Origin: a virus
Virus record (IMG/VR): IMGVR_UViG_3300045988_117466
Span: 64,001-128,000 of that record
DNA: 64,000 nucleotides
Direction: 5' to 3' (one strand)
Part shown: in pieces, positions 46,032 to 64,000 of the stretch
Layout: every line of letters starts with the position of its first letter
Position numbering within the stretch: position 1 is the first letter of the stretch
Made by a program: the position numbers and the translations under genes
The notes under the pieces: generated by a model
What the model was told of the DNA's origin: nothing
What the model saw: the letters and a program-made list of their open reading frames with translations, nothing else
Databases searched by the model: none

Positions 46032-46644
46032 ATATGTATTTTAATTTTAAAGCAGGTCTTCACCTTACAGTCATTTGTGGAATAGTTTGTTCTGCAACAT
46101 AGTAGATAAGTCTGAGCTTTGAGGAGCGACCTCTAACTTCTTACCTAAGTCTAAAAGACCAGTTCTATGACATGATCAATACATGCAATGTCAACCCGCC
46201 ATTCAGAATTAAGTTTTATTGTTATATACTCTATTAGCATATATATTCATTTTGAATTTGAACTTACCCTTAACTGACTTGAGCGACATACCAGCGACTT
46301 TTCTTATACACTGTCTTTTGAACAGCTTCACATCAAACTACATTATTTGGCTTTTCCACCTTTTACGTACCTGCCAGAGTACGCATTGAAGTGGATTATT
46401 CTCCACAGGAGCGTCTATTGTTGTAGCGAAAAGTTCTGTGCGTTAACCAGACCAAAATGCTGCACAATATCCATTTGCTTGAGAGTTTCTCTCTTGTCCA
46501 TATCAAATCACTCCGACATAAAAAGAGACACAAAGAACGTATCCGTACAATGTATCTCTCCAATTCGACATATGTGCCTAGAATATTTCTCGGACTCATG
46601 GCATTGAGTTTTATAACCGAGTTGCTTATGTTTTAAAATACAAA
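46032..46644 (-). ncRNA. ORF-free 613-nt insert in the tRNA array; candidate large structured RNA (strand assumed)
   Basis: No credible ORF on either strand. Flanked directly by tRNA-Gln and tRNA-Trp. Several local hairpins (GTGGA..TCCAC, ACGTAC..GTACGT). Confidence 0.3.
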
Positions 46645-46716
46645 CACCCTAAGCTGGATTTGAACCAGCACGAACGGTTTTGGAGACCGTCATTCTACCA
46701 ACTAAATTATTAGGGC
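46645..46716 (-). tRNA. tRNA-Trp (CCA)
   Basis: Acceptor GCCCTAA/TTAGGGT, anticodon loop CTCCAAA, T-loop TTCAAAT. Confidence 0.85.
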
Positions 46717-48341: not shown

Positions 48342-49196
48342 TTATTTTTTGTCAGAATTATAGTATTTAGTATATCTATTTAACTGCATTTCATTCTTAC
48401 AAGAAATACAATACTGTCTAAGCCGTCCTTTACGATGCTTTTTCTTTTTTGAGATGTCTCTAAAAGGTTCTCCACAACAAGAGCATACAGAAATCTCAGG
48501 ATATCCAATAAAGTGAAGATATCTGTTCCCAAGATTCTTGAAGTCTGTAATTTCAAGAGCGACATCTCCTGAATCAGCAAGAATATCTACAGAGAAGTTT
48601 AAGCTATTAACTTTCTTGCTCATTGTTATACAATCGCTTCTGAACAGTCTGCCGATTATTTGGCATCTACGTTCTCTTGTACCTACTGTATTACCCAATG
48701 AGAATAAATCTTTGTAGTCTGTATTCACCCAGCTGTTATTTTGAGGATTCAGAGCATTATAATACTTGGCCAAACAAAGAGCAGTGAAGAGGATCTTTTG
48801 ATCTCTAAGATTCTCTAACCCATTTATAGTTTCCATTTCAGATTCATAGATCGGCAGTGAATCAATTTCTACAAGAGGATACTTTTTAGCTTTATGAATT
48901 ATCTCATCAATGCATGAATACCATTTGGCTTCTCTGTAGCTCTCACAGGACTCTTTTAAGAACTCATTGATAGTTTTATATACCTCTGCAGGTTCTAAGC
49001 CTTCCTCGTGGATATAATACTTTGCAAGCAGGGTAGCAGTATATGGGATACTGCCTTCCAGCTCTTTTGTTTCTAAAATTTTTTCTACCAGTTTTTTTTC
49101 ATTTAGTACGATATTAATAACAATCAGCCTCCTCAAACATAGATGATTCAATTTGTTTAATAGTTTCAATGACGAAAGAATCTCCGTCATATTCAA
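48342..49196 (-). CDS. Hypothetical protein with C-terminal zinc ribbon (start uncertain)
   Basis: CSCCGEPF..YCISCKNE motif. Overlaps the RNAP stop. The only SD (GAGGAGG) is followed by ATT/ATC codons rather than ATG. Confidence 0.4.
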   Translation of the reverse strand: MNMTEILSSLKLLNKLNHLCLRRLIVINIVLNEKKLVEKILETKELEGSIPYTATLLAKYYIHEEGLEPAEVYKTINEFLKESCESYREAKWYSCIDEIIHKAKKYPLVEIDSLPIYESEMETINGLENLRDQKILFTALCLAKYYNALNPQNNSWVNTDYKDLFSLGNTVGTRERRCQIIGRLFRSDCITMSKKVNSLNFSVDILADSGDVALEITDFKNLGNRYLHFIGYPEISVCSCCGEPFRDISKKKKHRKGRLRQYCISCKNEMQLNRYTKYYNSDKK

Positions 49197-50256
49197 AATC
49201 TCCTGATTCAGCTCTTACAGGATAAGAGATCTGGTGATAGTTTCTCTCTAAGAGTCTTTGGACAAGAATGTCTCCAAACATGTCCCATACAAACTGCTTA
49301 CTCTTACCATTGGTGTAGCAGAGATCAAGAAGAATGTCACAAGCTTTCTCAGGATCAGGAACAGCAGTAGCAACAGCTTCTCTGAACAACATGACTCGAT
49401 TATTGATAATGTCTGTTACATTTAGACCAAAACCACCCTTACCGTTGATCAGAGCATTTAAGGTTTTCATTTTCTTTGAATATTCACTGTACAGCTTCTT
49501 AAGAGCATAATAATCATTCTTGTTGTACTCATGATCTCTTTTGAGAATGGAGTAATCAAAATCTGTTTGTGTGTTCAACTTCTTTAAGTATCCATCAAAC
49601 TCATCCTCAAAGAGCTTACAGATTCGATTCATTACACAAGGCCCTGTACCTACAGGCAAGAACTTATAGTAGTGGTCTAAGAATTCCGCTTCATCCTCTG
49701 TGATAGGTTCTGTATCAGCTTTCTTGAGCAATTCATCAATCGTACACCCAAACCAGATGATGCATTTGTCATTTGAAGCTTTCACATAATTTGTATAATC
49801 CTTTCTCAGATGAGAGTAGATGTAGATCATGAAGTATGGCTTCTTGTCAGCTACGATTCTCTGGTTGAATTCTTTCCGCTTACGATCCTTTGGTGAGTCT
49901 TCAGGATGGATGTTATTTTCCTTGCGATTGTACCAGTAAGATGGTATTGGTTTACACACGATGCCTTTTAGACGATCAATACTTCCTTGTTGATATAGCT
50001 GACCACAAATGATTCTGTAATCTAGTTCTTTAAACTCATCACTGTCAGGGGAGTAATGAGACTGTACTTCAAACTGAGAAGTGATGATGTTTGTTGTGAA
50101 GCCAATTTCGTCTCCAAAGGCATCCTTGTAAGCTTTTAGGATGTCTTTCTTTTTGGGAACAATCTTATTAGCCTTACGCTGCACACAAATGATTGATGGA
50201 AGAGGACGATTGTTCTCAACAAGTATTCTGTTGTTAGTTGTGAAGAAGAGGTCTCC
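49114..50256 (-). CDS. Two-barrel (YonO/QDE-1-like) RNA polymerase, exon 2
   Basis: The frame opens GDLFFTTNNRILVEN.. right after G 50257. No SD. Contains SIDRLKG. Confidence 0.65.
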   Translation of the reverse strand, partial: GDLFFTTNNRILVENNRPLPSIICVQRKANKIVPKKKDILKAYKDAFGDEIGFTTNIITSQFEVQSHYSPDSDEFKELDYRIICGQLYQQGSIDRLKGIVCKPIPSYWYNRKENNIHPEDSPKDRKRKEFNQRIVADKKPYFMIYIYSHLRKDYTNYVKASNDKCIIWFGCTIDELLKKADTEPITEDEAEFLDHYYKFLPVGTGPCVMNRICKLFEDEFDGYLKKLNTQTDFDYSILKRDHEYNKNDYYALKKLYSEYSKKMKTLNALINGKGGFGLNVTDIINNRVMLFREAVATAVPDPEKACDILLDLCYTNGKSKQFVWDMFGDILVQRLLERNYHQISYPVRAESGDFEYDGDSFVIETIKQIESSMFEEADCY

Positions 50257-50599
50257 CGATGTACCCTCGGTTTCCCGATATTTATGGAGAAAGGGGACTA
50301 GACTATATCATTACACAGCATAGGTCTTACACTGTGATGCTCGGCACTTCCCTTGGGGAGTTTCACCCTTTTGGTACTCTACTTGCTACCGATACCGTAT
50401 TCCTCGAATATCAGTGCTTTGGTTAGTCGTTTAACTTTCAATTTCTTGCTTAGCACAGGATTACCACCGACTCTACTCGCTGAGGCTTCCCTGTTAGCAC
50501 ATGTGTTAACTTCCATTTCCTGAAGCTACTGTATGTCACATGTACACCTTACATTTGTAAGTTCACCGAGTTTTACTTCGACAAATGGTATGCTCAGAT
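50257..50599 (-). mobile_element. ORF-less group I intron R (343 nt) in the RNA polymerase gene
   Basis: 7-bp P1 CTTCGAT|/GTCGAAG (50606-50600 / 50582-50576) with U.G at the splice site, terminal G at 50257. Core-like AATCCTGTGCTAAGC at 50448-50462. Splicing restores DFDGD in frame. Confidence 0.85.
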
Positions 50600-52330
50600 A
50601 TCGAAGTCGCAGCCGTTAAGTGATTCACATGTATTGTCCCAATTGTTGATCACACAAATGGATGGGAGATACTGGAACCAATATGAAAGCTGCTCATTGT
50701 TCTTCACTTTAAGATTGACGATATTGTAATGGCTTGTCATTGGAGCTCTGAAACAAGCTACTTCATCAACCTGTCTATCAACCCAATGCTTGTGATACAT
50801 TTCTCCTGCTTTAAGTAATCCTGTGACTTCAAGCCCAAACATAGACTGCATGAGAGCATATGGATCACCAGCAACGATTGAATAATTACCTTTCACTTTG
50901 ATGCGTCCAATCTTAGCATCTTGGATTCGTTTCTTAATGAGCGAATGAATCTTAGATCGAATGAAAGGATCTTTGATCATCTCAGGTTCAGCTATGAGTG
51001 CCTGGATGTATGTAAAAGCATCTGACTGTAAGATGTTCTTCTCAGTCATATTCTTACCTCGTAGGAAGAGCAGAGTCTTTCTGTAATCCATTCCAAGAAT
51101 GTCTTTGATCTCTTTTATGGTTGGCTCACAAAGCTCTCTTATTTGGGCGTCTGTGAGGTGATAGCTCTGTAAGAACTGATAGTTAAGATTTCTTTCAGTA
51201 TCACATTCTTGTTCAGCTGTCTTGGCAAGAGCAAAGTGATAATCATACTTCTCAATGTTCTCTAAGTAGTCTTCCATGGAATCATATGCGTCCCAGAGTT
51301 TAAACATAGATGTTGTAAGTATCACCTGAGCGTCTCTAACGTCCCTAGGATGGCCCCAAGCATCAATAATGGTATAAGTGTTGGCTACGTTCTCTGCAAA
51401 GGCTCTAAAGTCCATACAGTGAAGCATACCTTTACAGAATGGCCAACCTCTCATGTTGCCAGATGGAAGAGGAGTATCATAATCTCCATTCAGTTCACCA
51501 TTCCATTGCTTTGCAAGTTCTGGAAGAACTAATCCTTCTCCATCAGATCCATTGTGCACAAACTCTTGGTTATCAAGAAGAGTTACTTCTGGTTCATCTG
51601 AGTTTGTATCATCCACATAAAGAGCTTGTCCCTTAAAGACCGTCTCACAATCTTGTACAACAATCACTCCTGATGGTGGAGTAACAACTGTAGAAGAAGA
51701 GCAGAAGAGTGCTTTGTATGCTCCAAGCTTGTGAGTTATGATCGGAACCTCTTTGTTCCTTCCTGCATCTACTTTCTCACAGAGAGTATCGTACACGTTG
51801 TCACTGACAAAGATTACAACACTGTTCTTTAATCCTCCTGTAGTTCCTAAGAAGAGATTGTAGTGAAGATCGTTTACAATGAATCCATGCTTGCTACAGT
51901 AGTCATAATCTTTCTTTGTGTCGAAGACCACTGTGAGGTAGTCTGTTTGGAATCGACATTTGTACAAGTCATTGTAGAGTAGTGAGATAAGTTCTTTGCT
52001 TCCTCTGTTGGCTGAAAGCTCTTTGATCTTCTTTCGGATTCTTTTTGCTCTTATGTCTGAATCATAGTCATGGATTAATGAGTCGATTGTTCTTAATGCT
52101 TCAGAGCTTGAAAGAGTAATAATGTCATCTCCATTCTCCCTCGCTTCATTGAGTGGTAGAGAAAGTTTCCACTTCGCCTTTCTTAACCGGCTGCTGTGTA
52201 GTTTGTAAATATATTTCTGACTCGTCTTTTGCTTAGAAATAATGATCACTCCTTTTTTGATTTTTGTGTATGTTTTTACAGTAAATTGGAAAAATATGGA
52301 AAGCGAGTATATTTTCATATAAATACTCAT
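50600..52330 (-). CDS. Two-barrel (YonO/QDE-1-like) RNA polymerase, exon 1 (start uncertain)
   Basis: Ends ..ACFRAPMTSHYNIVNLKV..NWDNTCESLNGCDFD|. The only SD (AGGAG 52253-52249) is followed by ATC/ATT/ATT at 52246-52238. The upstream ATGs lack an SD. Confidence 0.6.
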
Positions 52331-59831: not shown

Positions 59832-60122
59832 ATGTGGAAAATTGGAGATAGAGTAATTGTTGTTGAGGCTCCAGAAGAAAAGAATATTTGGAGATTAAAT
59901 ATTTCAGCAGGCGACAAGGGAACCATTATAGCCAAAAGAGATGGTCAGTATTTAATCCAATTTGATAAGGATATTGGTGGGCATGATGGAGCTTTTGAAA
60001 AACCACTAGGTAAAGATGGTCATTGTTGGTGGTTGTATGAAGAACATTCTTACCTTGTAAGTTGTGCCTTAGAGCTTAAGTGTAAGTGGATTCCAAAGAA
60101 AAGAAACAACAACTTCTACTAA
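59832..60122 (+). CDS. Small paralog family member A (GDRV type), tail KKRNNNFY
   Basis: MWKIGDRVIVVEAPEE..GTIIAKRDGQYLIQFD.. Ends IPKKRNNNFY. Confidence 0.55.
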   Translation: MWKIGDRVIVVEAPEEKNIWRLNISAGDKGTIIAKRDGQYLIQFDKDIGGHDGAFEKPLGKDGHCWWLYEEHSYLVSCALELKCKWIPKKRNNNFY

Positions 60123-60140
60123 AAGAAAGGCAAGGTAAAC

Positions 60141-60440
60141 ATGAGAGAACTTAAACTTGAAGATTGTAAGGTTGGGATGACTCTTAAGCTAAAGGAAGAT
60201 TGTCCTTTTAGAGAGTATTGGGAAATAGATCCTAAGGAACCGGTAAAGTGCATTGTCCTAGAGGTGATCGGGAGTCAAATAGATAGCATTTTTGTAGATA
60301 TCTACTATAAAAATGGGCGAAAATGTGTCCCGAGGAATTGGTATTTCTATACAGAAGATTCAATAATAGAGGCTAACGGTTATGAACTAATCTCAAAGAA
60401 CTTAGAGTATCCGAACAAGCGAAAGAACAATTACTATTGA
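60141..60440 (+). CDS. Small paralog family member B (EDC.VG type), tail KRKNNYY
   Basis: ..LEDCKVGMTLKLKEDCPF.. Ends PNKRKNNYY. Confidence 0.55.
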   Translation: MRELKLEDCKVGMTLKLKEDCPFREYWEIDPKEPVKCIVLEVIGSQIDSIFVDIYYKNGRKCVPRNWYFYTEDSIIEANGYELISKNLEYPNKRKNNYY

Positions 60441-60451
60441 GAGGTGCAAAT

Positions 60452-60757
60452 ATGCAAAAAGAAAAGGGAATTCGATTCGAAGATTGCCATGTTGGAGATG
60501 TATTTAGGTTAAAAACAAGGTGTCCTTTTGTGTACTATTACCTTATATCTGAGGGGATTGCTGTAGCAATAGAAGATAAAGTTACTGCAAGAGTAGTTCA
60601 TAAAGAAAGAGATACTCTTGATGTAATGGTATATGTAAATGGGAAAAGATGTGCAACAGATTGGGATTGTTGGCTTGCAAGCAGTTCGATCTATCGTGAA
60701 CATAGTTTTTACCTTAATGTCGATTCAAAGATTAATCGAAAGAACAACTATTATTAG
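60452..60757 (+). CDS. Small paralog family member C (EDC.VG type), tail NRKNNYY
   Basis: ..FEDCHVGDVFRLKTRCPF.. Ends KINRKNNYY. Confidence 0.55.
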   Translation: MQKEKGIRFEDCHVGDVFRLKTRCPFVYYYLISEGIAVAIEDKVTARVVHKERDTLDVMVYVNGKRCATDWDCWLASSSIYREHSFYLNVDSKINRKNNYY

Positions 60758-60782
60758 ATATAAGAGAAAGGAAAATAAGGCT

Positions 60783-61298
60783 ATGGGATATTTTAAAGTA
60801 GGAGATAGAGTAGAAGTAATAGGCATCTATGGGCAACTTCCTGCCTATTATGAAGAACAAATAGAGATAGGTTCAAAGGGAACTATAATTACTGTAGATT
60901 GGTATGGTATTGACGTAATATTTGACGATCTTAAACCTTATAAAGAGCCATCAAAGAACTCTTTGAATTTTGCTCCAATGTGGGATGATGATAAGGATAG
61001 TGAAGAATTTATTGATTCTGATATCCAAGGGACTGTTATTTTGGGCAAGGAAAACGCACCAAAAGCAGAGGTTCAAGTGAAATCTATTAAAATCAAAGAT
61101 CGGACTGTTATAAGAGACAATAACGGAGACCGCTTAGATGTAGAAATTATTACAGATCAGGGAAAGATTTTGGGAAGCACTTGTAGATGCTACAAAGGTT
61201 GCCACAATACTTGGGACATAACCAATTTAATAGGCAGAAAATTTCAAGGTATGAATGGTTTACTTCGTTATTTAATTGTGGAACAGAAAGGAAAATAA
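60783..61298 (+). CDS. Small paralog family member D (GDRV type), longer and without the tail
   Basis: MGYFKVGDRVEVIGIYG..GTIITVDWYGIDVIFD.. Ends EQKGK. Confidence 0.5.
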   Translation: MGYFKVGDRVEVIGIYGQLPAYYEEQIEIGSKGTIITVDWYGIDVIFDDLKPYKEPSKNSLNFAPMWDDDKDSEEFIDSDIQGTVILGKENAPKAEVQVKSIKIKDRTVIRDNNGDRLDVEIITDQGKILGSTCRCYKGCHNTWDITNLIGRKFQGMNGLLRYLIVEQKGK

Positions 61299-61300
61299 AA

Positions 61301-61600
61301 GTGAAAGATAGAGAAATTCGGACAGGAGATAGAGTAGAAGTTATTAAAAGTCATAACGAGGATTCATGTATTGATCACTATGCTCCTGTAGGGCTTAAAG
61401 GAACTGTAGTTTATGCAGAACCGAGACATTTGACAAAGCAAATAGCTGTTGAGTTTGATAAGTCTTTTAAAGAAGGACACGGTTGTAGTGGAAAAGTAAG
61501 AGGTAAGCGAGGGCAGTGGTATGAATATGATCCACATTCCAATATATATTGGAAAAATTGCTTAAAAATCTTATCCAAAAAGAAAAACAACTATTACTAA
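61301..61600 (+). CDS. Small paralog family member E (GDRV type), tail KKKNNYY
   Basis: GTG at 61301 after GAAAGGAAA. ..IRTGDRVEVIKSH..GTVVYAEP.. Ends LSKKKNNYY. Confidence 0.5.
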   Translation: MKDREIRTGDRVEVIKSHNEDSCIDHYAPVGLKGTVVYAEPRHLTKQIAVEFDKSFKEGHGCSGKVRGKRGQWYEYDPHSNIYWKNCLKILSKKKNNYY

Positions 61601-61647
61601 AGGTATTTCAAAATCAGTGGAGTGATTTTTGTTAATACATGAAGAAA

Positions 61648-61674
61648 GGCGGGATTTATTCCCGTCTTTTTTTA
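61648..61674 (+). terminator. Intrinsic terminator
   Basis: GGCGGGA-TTTA-TTCCCGTC followed by TTTTTTT. Confidence 0.6.
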
Positions 61675-61693
61675 AAACAGAAAGGAAATTAAG

Positions 61694-62074
61694 ATGAGTA
61701 AATTTAGATATTTAAATGAAGAAGAAACAAAAGTGTTATTACAGGTAACAGAATGGTTAGATAATCATTTCTTTAATCCAGAAAATAAATTCGATGAAGA
61801 ATATTTTGAGAAATACATGAGAGCAATCATTGACAACACAAGGGAAATGTACGAAGCGGTATACATCTGTGTGAACACAAAACCTGTAACTGTAATGATT
61901 TATGACTATGTACTTGACATTATTATTACCGATGCACGAGTTGACAAAGAAGCTAGAGAGATTGTAGAGATTGCTTTTACAACTTGGTTAATAAACATGA
62001 CAGATAAACCATTTGAAAAGATTTTTGAATGGATGATTAGGCTCGCAATCCAATCACGTAAAGCTGATGAGTAA
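61694..62074 (+). CDS. Hypothetical protein
   Basis: GAAAGGAAA box upstream. 126 aa. Confidence 0.45.
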   Translation: MSKFRYLNEEETKVLLQVTEWLDNHFFNPENKFDEEYFEKYMRAIIDNTREMYEAVYICVNTKPVTVMIYDYVLDIIITDARVDKEAREIVEIAFTTWLINMTDKPFEKIFEWMIRLAIQSRKADE

Positions 62075-62124
62075 AGAGTCATACAAAACAGAGAATATAC
62101 AAATAAAAGTGAGGCGATAAATAA

Positions 62125-63234
62125 ATGTTAAAAGCCTATAAATATAGATTATATCCAAACAGACAACAAATAAAACAAATTCAAAAAACTTTTGGGTGTT
62201 GTAGATTTGTATATAATCAAACTCTCGCATATAGGAAAGCAATGTATGAAACGAAAAAAGAATCTATGAATAAAACTTCTTGTAACAACTATGTTAATCA
62301 AGTTCTAAAAAAAAAATACGAATGGTTAAAGGAAGTGGATAAATTTGCTCTTACGAATGCAATTTATGATATGGATTTCGCATATCAGAAATTTTTCAAA
62401 GAGCATACAGGTTTTCCAAAGTTCAAATCTAAACGAGATAATAAAAAGTCATATTCTACTAATTTTACAAACAACAATATCGGAGTATCGTTTGAGAATA
62501 ATAGGATTAAACTTCCGAAACTTAAATGGATTAAAGCAAAGATTCATAGAGAATTTATAGGGAAGATAAAATCCGCAACAATTTCACAAGTACCGTCTGG
62601 CAAATATTTTGTATCAATTCTTGTAGAAACAGAGCATATTCCAATGGAGTCTACCGGTTGTATGATTGGTATTGACTTAGGTGTTAAAGATTTACTTATC
62701 ACTTCCGATGGAGCAAAATTTGATAATATTCGCACCACTAAAAAATATGAAGATAAACTAGCAAAAGAACAAAGAAAATTGTCTCATAAAGTAAAAGGTA
62801 GTATGAATTGGAATAAACAGAGAATAAAAGTAGCAAGAATACATGAAAAGATTCACAATACCAGAATTGATAACTTACATAAAATTTCTCATAAACTTGT
62901 CAGCGAAAACCAAGTGATAGTTTCTGAGGACTTATCTGTAAGTAATATGGTGAAGAATCGTAATCTTGCGAAGGCGATTTTAGATTGTGGATGGTATGAA
63001 TTAACAAGACAGATAAGTTATAAGTCTGATTGGAATAATCGTCAGTATATCAAGATTGGAAGATTTACAAAATCAAGCCAACCTTGTAATATATGTGGTT
63101 ACATTAATAAAAACACAAAAGATTTATCTGTTAGAGAATGGATATGTCCTCAATGTGGAACTATCCATGATAGAGATATCAATGCTGCAATTAATATTCT
63201 TAATGAAGGATTGAGATTATTAGATGTAGTATAA
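62125..63234 (+). mobile_element. tnpB: TnpB (IS200/IS605-family OrfB, RNA-guided nuclease type), with no TnpA nearby
   Basis: MLKAYKYRLYPN..FGCCRFVYNQ N-terminus. RuvC triad context IGIDLGVKD, VSEDLSV, HDRDINAAINI. Zinc finger CNICG..CPQCG. Confidence 0.85.
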
Positions 63235-63345
63235 ATAATACTTAGTACGACAGGGACTGTCGGAATTTACGCTTGTGGAGTTAGTAGGTTACGAGGACGA
63301 TGAAACAAGAAGCCCAACGAGCTTTAGCTCGTGGGTAGTTCAAGA
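63235..63345 (+). ncRNA. Candidate TnpB omega/right-end RNA scaffold (extent uncertain)
   Basis: Directly 3' of tnpB. Hairpins CGACAG-GGA-CTGTCG (63248-63262) and CCCAACGAGC-TTT-AGCTCGTGGG (63313-63335). Confidence 0.4.
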
Positions 63346-63383
63346 AAGTTACAGGATAAGACAAAGAAGAGAGGATGAAGACG

Positions 63384-63527
63384 ATGAATAGATTTGAAAC
63401 AGTAATGAAGTTAATTTGTTGGATTGCAGCAGTGACATTGGCATGGATGCACGTTTCAATTGTTGCAGTGATTGCACTTGCATTGGTTGGAACTTTTGGA
63501 AGTGAGGTTGATTTGGGTGCAAAGTAG
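63384..63527 (+). CDS. 47-aa membrane peptide
   Basis: ATG after AGAGAGGA. MNRFETVMKLICWIAAVTLAWMHVSIVAVIALALVGTFGSEVDLGAK. Below the ORF-track cutoff. Confidence 0.35.
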   Translation: MNRFETVMKLICWIAAVTLAWMHVSIVAVIALALVGTFGSEVDLGAK

Positions 63528-63867
63528 ACAATTAGGAAGGCAAGTATGTTTTAAAGATTGTCATGTTGGAGATGTTTTTGGAATAGATAAAGACAGTCCT
63601 TATATGCGTAGAAGTAGAAGCAGATTGGTTGTAGATAATTTATACGATCTTGAACCATCAGACATATTAAAAGCAAAAGTTATATCTGTAGAGGAAGAAG
63701 ATTCTACCATTTGCATAGATGTTTATGTAAATAATGAAGAGTATCCAAGGGTTTCAGGCTGGCTTTACTCCTGGATATACAATTCAGAAACACCACTGCA
63801 TGGTTCAGATTTGTGGATTGAGAATAATCTCAGATTCTTGTCAAAGAGAAAGAATAACTACTGGTAA
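63517..63867 (+). CDS. Small paralog family member F (EDC.VG type), tail KRKNNYW
   Basis: GTG at 63517. ..FKDCHVGDVFGIDKDSPY.. Ends LSKRKNNYW. Confidence 0.5.
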   Translation: MQSRQLGRQVCFKDCHVGDVFGIDKDSPYMRRSRSRLVVDNLYDLEPSDILKAKVISVEEEDSTICIDVYVNNEEYPRVSGWLYSWIYNSETPLHGSDLWIENNLRFLSKRKNNYW

Positions 63868-63881
63868 AGAGAGGTGTGAGA

Positions 63882-64000
63882 ATGGAGTTAAAAGTTGGGA
63901 TGAAACTCTACGACAAAAAACACAATATTGTATTAGTAATTGTGGATTTAGACATAGACAAAATATGTGTTTATAGTAAATCTTTTACCGGCAATAGAAA
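63882..64000 (+). CDS. Further small family-like gene, cut by window end
   Basis: ATG after GAGAGG. MELKVGMKLYDKKHNIVLVIVDLD.. Confidence 0.4.
   Translation, partial: MELKVGMKLYDKKHNIVLVIVDLDIDKICVYSKSFTGNR

Follow-up and report, generated by a model that had tools for sequence, protein, structure and literature searches.

In a 64,000-nucleotide stretch of an uncultured phage genome (IMG/VR record IMGVR_UViG_3300045988_117466, positions 64,001 to 128,000; hereafter the window), we analysed a run of small genes whose products share a short C-terminal tail. Five plus-strand open reading frames (ORFs) between positions 59832 and 63867 end in [KR]-K/N-N-N-[YF]-[YW] directly followed by the stop codon, and related phages encode about 20 such genes per genome. 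Selection acts on the tail as a peptide, the tail is predicted to be flexible and to lie outside small SH3-like barrels, and homologous barrels in other phage lineages carry other, lineage-specific C-terminal tags. The explanation to which we give about even chances is that the tail serves as a C-terminal short linear docking motif, linking varied barrel heads to one reader.

Small genes with a common C-terminal tail

The run of co-oriented small genes occupies 59.8-64.0 kb of the window on the + strand. Its tail genes, assigned to a GDRV or an EDC.VG type by their N-termini, are given below together with the paralogues D and J and a terminator-like hairpin (window coordinates; aa, amino acids).

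Gene A, 59832..60122, + strand: 96 aa, GDRV type, tail ...PKKRNNNFY, tail codons 60099-60119 (from ORF and translation)
Gene B, 60141..60440, + strand: 99 aa, EDC.VG type, tail ...NKRKNNYY, tail codons 60417-60437 (from ORF and translation)
Gene C, 60452..60757, + strand: 101 aa, EDC.VG type, tail ...INRKNNYY, tail codons 60734-60754
Gene D, 60783..61298, + strand: 171 aa, N-terminal barrel of the GDRV type, extended C-terminal part, no tail
Gene E, 61301..61600, + strand: 99 aa, GTG start, GDRV type, tail ...SKKKNNYY, tail codons 61577-61597
Intrinsic-terminator-like hairpin, 61650..61673, + strand: CGGGA-TTTAT-TCCCG with a T run behind it (read from the sequence itself)
Gene I, 63517..63867, + strand: 116 aa, GTG start, EDC.VG type, tail ...SKRKNNYW, tail codons 63844-63864
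Gene J, 63882..64000, + strand: 5' part only, MELKVGMKLYDKKHN..., cut at the window end; seventh paralogue

The five tails and three codon strings quoted in the first-pass annotation, made from this DNA alone, were all recovered exactly in the sequence. Orthologues of gene A retain the tail and many orthologues of gene B carry an identical one, while B and C align with each other in BLASTP at E = 1e-11. The C-terminal extension of gene D comprises ~110 residues, and relatives have a 171-aa orthologue of D at the same place; a metagenomic variant of 119 aa (P0054) joins the N-terminus of D to the C-terminus of E including the tail, which suggests recombination inside the array. The orthologues P0061 and P0071 of gene E start with MKDREIRTGDRV. 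For gene I, a GAGG lies 9 nucleotides (nt) upstream of the GTG, an ATG at 63546 is out of frame, and the JGI protein P0008 has the same start, VQSRQLGRQV. Gene J probably belongs to a class labelled 'DNELKIGM', to judge from a weak BLASTP match (E = 0.007); this class ends in ...NRKNNYY in relatives, and the gene at the position of J bears the tail in loci L001-L004. The hairpin at 61650-61673 closes the A-E block, and a computational scan places the same hairpin on the opposite strand.

The genes had first been described as seven adjacent ones. The co-oriented array stands, but between E and I lie a 126-aa gene unrelated to the others, a TnpB insertion of 1304 bp and a gene of 50 aa, and the array comprises ~20 genes per genome in relatives, whereas the window end leaves only the first members visible. 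Given the amino-acid composition of the window, an ORF would end in K-N-N-[YF]-[YW] by chance with a probability of 1.3e-6, corresponding to ~0.0003 expected per window versus five observed. A six-frame scan of the 64-kb window revealed no other ORF of real length with the tail, and none of the structural proteins of the window carries it. A sigma-70 promoter scan gave fewer sites than shuffled sequence.

Selection on the tail peptide

Among 48 distinct DNA variants of the tail, codon positions 1 and 2 of K-N-N-Y are invariant, and the third positions have an entropy of ~1 bit; arginine is encoded by AGA, CGA, AGG, CGG and CGT, and TAA, TGA and TAG all occur as stop codons. Purifying selection thus acts on the tail peptide and not on the DNA, as had been argued initially from three codon strings. 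Because of this codon pattern, a promoter, a recombination site or an RNA motif is excluded, and with no Rfam family matching the tail region, we ruled out a DNA- or RNA-level element.

In a catalogue of 212 proteins, N-N at positions -4/-3 is invariant; K stands at -5 in 201, R or K at -6 in 211, Y or F at -2 in 211, and Y or W at -1 without exception. Proteins entered this catalogue by matching a regular expression for the tail, so for unbiased figures the profile search and the distant representatives given below must be taken. The ribosome-binding site of the next gene usually follows 10-25 nt after the tail stop codon, and several classes resemble one another loosely in a strand-like pattern over the 10-15 residues ahead of the tail.

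Family size and spread

A profile built from the five tail proteins had 89 matches, all unnamed metagenomic proteins, and the tail is kept in 85 of them, the other four being truncated or frameshifted; the expected conservation of the tail in homologues from related phages was therefore borne out. When 1.84 billion cluster representatives were searched exhaustively with a profile, more distant small proteins (clusters below 50% identity) were added, and these, too, have KKNNYY, KKNNYW or KNNFY at their ends. The related loci that we fetched hold 11-17 tail genes each. Reading through one contig (L034) revealed ~12 tail genes, then a seven-gene cassette and then, without a gap, eight more tail genes. 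Outside the array the tail was not found over ~40-50 kb further downstream through the relatives, large enzymes included, in a walk that left ~10 kb and ~6 kb at the two contig ends unread; this stretch contains an integrase-like gene, a toxin-like gene and replication genes for a DnaB-like helicase, a PD-(D/E)XK nuclease, a split DnaE-like polymerase and a RecD2-like helicase.

Apart from SH3_12 for gene E, the tail proteins could not be placed in any Pfam or PHROG family. A protein search of 185,579 species genomes gave no relatives, and the DNA pattern for AGA-K-N-N-Y-Y-stop had scattered single matches there, nearly all in ORFs shorter than 35 aa, which we rejected as chance. Three IMG/VR contigs with a 165-aa ORF ending ...FQRKNNYY, as well as locus L019, were likewise discarded as unrelated, having been picked by the pattern itself. 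Literature searches for KNNYY, RKNNYY, KNNYW and KNNFY gave nothing relevant, in line with the initial statement that no described motif matches, and searches for phage ThiF/JAB/ubiquitin-like proteins and for multigene families with a conserved C-terminus led to bacterial defence systems, among them CBASS (PMC10097602), and unrelated papers only. What is new is the KNNYY-type motif itself, its occurrence throughout an expanded family and the swapping of tags on homologous bodies from lineage to lineage; the principle of a shared terminal docking peptide is already known.

Folds and classes of the bodies

AlphaFold2 models of A and B, built with family alignments, predict a folded body followed by a flexible tail in both types. 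Gene A has a mean predicted local distance difference test score (pLDDT) of 85.7 and six strands, with residues 93-96 below 50, and gene B is beta-rich with a mean pLDDT of 83 and residues 95-99 below 50, so the models agree with the earlier assumption of a tail outside the folded domain. Gene E matches Pfam PF18129 SH3_12, the Xrn1 SH3-like domain (28.9 bits, cut-off 26.2); A and D score only 14 bits, below the cut-off, and B, C and I have no Pfam match. In Foldseek searches against the PDB, A was placed with SH3, KOW and Pif1 SH3-like domains (E ~0.03-0.3, with probabilities reaching 0.97) and B with Agenet, Tudor, FeoA and Sm barrels (E at least 0.39, none significant); neither had a match reaching E 0.001. 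From the models, the Pfam match of E and the Foldseek placements, both body types of the window are therefore predicted to be small SH3-like barrels with a free tail, close to the SH3/KOW-like domains originally suggested.

The tail is not confined to two N-terminal types, as had been assumed. Once the last eight residues are removed, the tail proteins fall into at least six body clusters in BLASTP, and hhalign comparisons between these clusters are mostly insignificant (for EDC versus GDRV without the tail, E = 0.0023 with 12.6% probability over 72 columns). Some classes may have a common ancestor, because B and E align weakly over their full length in BLASTP (E = 0.003), and the two window types may be distant relatives.

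Homologues of the GDRV body (BLASTP below 1e-6) also occur in other phage lineages, where they end in NLEEIL, INISELI, DLDDLI, PTSLL, FDVLL and similar, i.e., in the tag of their own lineage. Because homologous bodies bear different, lineage-own tails, body and tail are separable modules in evolution. The first-pass annotation had called the tail 'grafted' onto the domains, which fits the different tails on homologous bodies in other lineages, but less so the contrast between the two window types, which may be related to each other.

Tags in other phage lineages

Using the E1-like gene of the cassette described below, we gathered 80 IMG/VR loci. Several of them contain arrays of small ORFs with a common lineage-specific C-terminal tag:

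[NG][ILV]EE[LI]I: 11 genes in locus L117
[ILV]DDLI: small-ORF array in another lineage
NLEE[IV]L: small-ORF array in another lineage
[NS]CLLL: small-ORF array in another lineage
FRSLL: small-ORF array in another lineage
LMDFL plus 1-2 residues: small-ORF array in another lineage
INN[FYLI]: small-ORF array in another lineage
FN[GS]LE plus 0-7 residues: small-ORF array in another lineage
...xLL: at least two dozen ORFs within 20 kb in locus L077

In one locus, 14 of 21 small ORFs end in LL, and some ORFs of loci L081 and L074 have the ubiquitin-like endings LLRGG, ILTRGG and MLGGSK. Very large tagged small-ORF arrays were seen in L077, L081, L074, L079, L087 and L117-L119, from other phages that have this cassette.

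At least three small ORFs with a common 4-mer in their last ten residues were found in 13 of 73 E1 loci, compared with 0-1 of the 73 when three internal ten-residue windows were taken instead, and 2-4 of the 73 when N-terminal ones were. The sharing is specific to the C-terminus and therefore not a by-product of paralogy; nothing similar was found in control regions (structural, replication and unrelated phage contigs).

A Ubl/JAB/E1 cassette within the array

Beyond the window end, the array of the relatives surrounds a cassette with genes for a ubiquitin-like (Ubl), a JAB-like and an E1-like protein, and tail genes lie on both sides of it in L031, L034 and L049-L058.

Cassette, L034:2786-7941 (IMGVR_UViG_3300045988_185495): seen also in L046-L048 and most of L049-L128

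Its order is a ~120-aa protein, a 79-aa protein, a 460-630-aa protein, a JAMM protein, ThiF/E1 and usually a reverse transcriptase. The 79-aa protein has a ThiS/MoaD-like (beta-grasp-like) pattern and ends in VVKAD[SNG][AG] plus 0-3 residues, in a few cases in GG plus 1-2 residues. The 460-630-aa protein (574 aa in one relative) has no database match and contains a C-terminal CPNPH...C.G motif; hhalign showed no homology of the small barrels to the N-terminus of this ~570-aa protein. The JAB assignment is based on the HxHx7SxxD motif, which occurs as HSHVxMxxxPSxxD in 25 of 26 orthologues, and neither the 574-aa nor the JAB-like protein has a sequence match in the PDB. The E1 protein matches Pfam ThiF (2e-21) and, in the PDB, UBA5, MccB, MoeB and PaaA, by which similarity it is a true member of the E1 superfamily. 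The E1 family has 1355 metagenomic homologues, and no cultured phage encodes an E1 above 46% identity.

Because tail genes surround it and tags elsewhere end in RGG or in GG plus an extension, the cassette is a candidate reader of the tail. A presence/absence test for genes enriched in tag-bearing versus tag-free loci within 10 kb returned only the small proteins themselves.

Interpretation of the tail

In the explanation that we put at about even, the five window ORFs would be the first members of a ~20-gene family of small (~80-120 aa) SH3-like barrels whose last six residues, [KR]-K-N-N-[YF]-[YW]-COOH, form a flexible C-terminal short linear motif. The variable barrel head would supply each paralogue with its own target or activity, while the invariant tail would dock all paralogues onto one common reader, with the free terminal carboxylate, two aromatic side chains and the preceding basic patch as probable docking features. 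We infer that the binding partner acts in trans and that it is a single one; since the tags differ between related phages, this reader would be phage-encoded and co-evolving with the tags rather than a universally conserved host machine. Several points weigh against this explanation. The enrichment test within 10 kb named no reader gene. The evidence consists wholly of sequence and prediction, from an uncultured phage, and an invariant disordered C-terminus would suit a degron, a packaging signal or an enzyme handle equally well. In addition, the strand-like pattern before the tail could mean that all bodies form one very divergent family, which would weaken the notion of unrelated domains but not the separability of body and tail.

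A rather improbable alternative is that the tail is a handle for the neighbouring cassette, whose E1 might activate the carboxylate (as Cap2 does with CD-NTases and MccB with MccA), whose JAB protein might trim the tail, or whose ~570-aa protein might receive the small proteins as substrates or adaptors. The tail genes flanking the cassette on both sides without a gap after E1, the membership of E1 in its superfamily, the tag arrays adjoining the cassette in other lineages as well, and tags there with 0-7 additional variable residues or ending in LLRGG, ILTRGG and MLGGSK like Ubl precursors would all fit. However, the C-terminus of the cassette's own Ubl is conserved across lineages together with E1 (45-68% identity), whereas the tails of the small proteins differ completely; ~80% of the E1 loci, including the fairly close L059 and L061, have no tag array within 10 kb; the bodies are SH3-like rather than beta-grasp and the tail has no Gly-Gly; and the loci were all selected by E1 or belong to this clade, so adjacency may only mirror a common gene region. 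A more specific form, in which the Ubl/JAB/E1 cassette or its ~570-aa protein would read lineage-specific tags and the ~20 SH3-like heads would be conjugated via their own C-termini (like CD-NTases by Cap2) or serve as exchangeable adaptors steering the Ubl onto host or phage targets in an F-box-like manner, is likewise improbable, because the cassette has a conserved Ubl of its own, most E1 loci lack a tag array and no reader gene was enriched. To a degron we give a similarly small share as to the handle in general: the flexible C-terminus, hydrophobic or aromatic at its end and with a basic patch, might hand the proteins to a host AAA+ protease (ClpXP, ClpCP, Lon or FtsH), limiting them to a short time window of infection or jamming the protease. 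Most tags of other lineages end in two hydrophobic residues (LL, LI, IL), and precedents exist in the ssrA-type and MuA-type (RRKKAI) signals for ClpX and in the lambda CII C-terminal tail recognised by FtsH. Yet host protease preferences are broadly conserved while the tags differ sharply among related gut phages (KNNYY versus EELI versus CLLL), constancy at five or six positions exceeds the needs of known degrons, and no protease or adaptor gene was seen near the array.

That a single paralogous family is diverging fast and the tail is simply its best-conserved end, serving structure or oligomerisation without a docking role of its own, seems quite unlikely to us. The full-length alignment of B and E, the small SH3-like barrel predicted for both types and the loosely common strand-like segment ahead of the tail speak for one family, but the tail has a pLDDT below 50 in the models of A and B, stays invariant though the bodies diverge to undetectable similarity, is replaced by other tails on homologous bodies in other lineages, and is shared in a C-terminus-specific way that is missing from internal windows. 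A capsid-loading signal, by which the small proteins would be injected with the DNA, would agree with the logic of T4 internal proteins and encapsulin cargo peptides, where many diverse small proteins share one short terminal peptide, and lineage-specific tags are compatible with capsid or scaffold co-evolution. We nevertheless consider it very unlikely: the genes lie on the opposite strand to the structural module, in a block with Bro-N, Ubl-E1 and reverse transcriptase genes, the tail is missing from the structural proteins of the window, and the T4 signal is N-terminal and cleaved. Barely probable, finally, is an element acting in cis, either as a DNA or RNA motif or as a nascent peptide pausing the ribosome at the stop codon to couple translation of the following gene. 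The motif stands exactly at the stop codon in 212 of 212 catalogued proteins (a catalogue defined by that ending) and the next ribosome-binding site is usually within 10-25 nt, but free third positions, five arginine codons, three stops and the absence of an Rfam match exclude the nucleic-acid version, and the nascent-peptide version is opposed by the tail-bearing gene E preceding a terminator and by the extra residues after the tag in other lineages. We know of no arrest peptide that resembles the tail motif.

Comparison with known systems

In T4, the polymerase gp43 as well as gp55 and gp33 carry interchangeable C-terminal clamp-binding peptides on flexible linkers (PMC2988020). These peptides are the closest documented precedent for the proposed docking motif, as here, too, otherwise unrelated phage proteins would bear a short, exchangeable C-terminal peptide on an unstructured linker for one hub. 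The T4 motif differs in being hydrophobic and acidic, in having a known reader (gp45) and in being carried by the DNA polymerase, whereas the tail described here is basic and aromatic (K/R-K-N-N-Y-Y) and occurs on ~20 small paralogues. Tags of other lineages (EELI, DDLI, LMDFL) do fit the hydrophobic-acidic description of the clamp epitopes. In loci L129-L165, the tail is found nowhere outside the array, replisome proteins included, and the DnaE-like polymerase ends in ...ERMREA. The tail does not match the bacterial beta-clamp motif QL[SD]LF or the PIP box Qxx[LIM]xx[FY][FY], with N/S/I/K at position -8 and K at -5. As a separate observation, a replication module of the same clade (L152:10001-21169) encodes proteins with F-x-F ends, namely the DnaB-like helicase (...KQFFF), the PD-(D/E)XK nuclease (...RKFIF) and the RecD2-like helicase (...NKFSF), and two small ORFs there end in ...EKLNF and ...TSGSF; from its sequence, this pattern may be a second hub-binding tail.

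Cap2 and Cap3 of CBASS act on the C-terminus of the CD-NTase. With such Ubl/E1 substrates (Ubl-E1-JAB operons, CBASS, MccB, PaaA), the tail proteins have in common a small size, a conserved flexible C-terminal tail and adjoining E1-like and JAMM genes. They differ from Ubl modifiers in their predicted SH3-like barrel instead of a beta-grasp and in the absence of Gly-Gly, as all 212 catalogued proteins end in Y-Y, Y-W or F-Y; moreover, the cassette already has a beta-grasp-like Ubl of its own, and the tails change across lineages while E1 hardly does.

T4 internal proteins carry an N-terminal capsid-targeting sequence that is removed by the prohead protease. They and proteins with encapsulin cargo peptides resemble the present family as diverse small proteins with one short terminal targeting peptide, but the present tail stands at the extreme C-terminus, and its genes belong to the other strand, apart from the structural module. 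The ssrA tag, MuA RRKKAI (both for ClpX), the lambda CII tail (FtsH) and the C-terminal DDDIPF of SSB are disordered C-terminal peptides read by a common machine, and like the tail they combine a free carboxylate with a hydrophobic or aromatic end; none of these sequences is matched by KNNY[YW], and the tag varies between phage lineages far beyond host degron rules. Poxvirus ankyrin/PRANC proteins are also an expanded viral family with variable target-binding heads and a constant C-terminal element for one machine, but PRANC, which is F-box-like, is a folded domain of ~50 residues with the known partner Skp1, whereas the element found here is a six-residue linear motif. RRNPP/arbitrium propeptides, whose C-terminal 5-7 residues form the mature peptide, are short precursors with a secretion signal at the N-terminus, encoded by one gene beside that of a receptor. 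The tail proteins differ from them in being ~100-aa predicted barrels with no visible hydrophobic N-terminal signal and with ~20 genes per genome.

The phage and other features of the window

The window belongs to a tailed phage, with tape measure, portal, terminase and tail genes on the - strand. Its portal protein is only ~30% identical to those of large Firmicute siphoviruses, e.g., Brevibacillus phage Sundance, and neither near-identical nor distantly similar DNA was found in cultured phages. The relatives are all metagenomic contigs, ~104-134 kb long except for one of 270 kb, and the complete ones are ~130-kb uncultured siphovirus-like phages of the gut. The array shares its block with a Bro-N gene, with the Ubl/E1 cassette and with the reverse transcriptase, on the opposite strand to the structural module and ahead of the replication genes.

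TnpB-only element of the IS605 family, 62038-63341: 1304 bp, TnpB ORF at 62125-63234, + strand
Seven tRNA genes, 45.7-47.2 kb
Full-length ROOL RNA, 46034-46645, - strand: within the tRNA cluster; Rfam RF03087, 303.7 bits (gathering score 99.1)
RdRP-like (YonO-type) phage RNA polymerase gene, 49117-52249, - strand: 930 aa in relatives

TnpB matches the Pfam families OrfB_IS605, Cas12f1-like TNB and HTH_OrfB. Relatives lack the element, and compared with them (L002) the insertion is precise; it gives the 126-aa gene at 61694-62074 a different C-terminus. Downstream of TnpB, the presumed guide-RNA region has no Rfam match. The RNA polymerase gene of the window is split after residue 550 by a 343-nt insert (50257-50599) into ORFs of 356 and 578 aa. 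The flanks of the insert are 96-98% identical to L001, and the insert itself, which has no Rfam match, could be an intron or another small insertion.

Significance

If the docking explanation is true, one gene block, presumably an early one, of a large group of uncultured gut Firmicute-type phages would have a hub-and-tag organisation, and a six-residue tag would connect dozens of small 'hypothetical' ORFs per genome to a single partner. The tag provides both an experimental handle for identifying the reader and a sequence rule for grouping small phage genes that otherwise cannot be annotated. Tag swaps on homologous bodies further offer a natural experiment in the co-evolution of a linear motif and its reader, and if the reader were the Ubl/JAB/E1 cassette, these phages would encode a protein-tagging system of a new kind.

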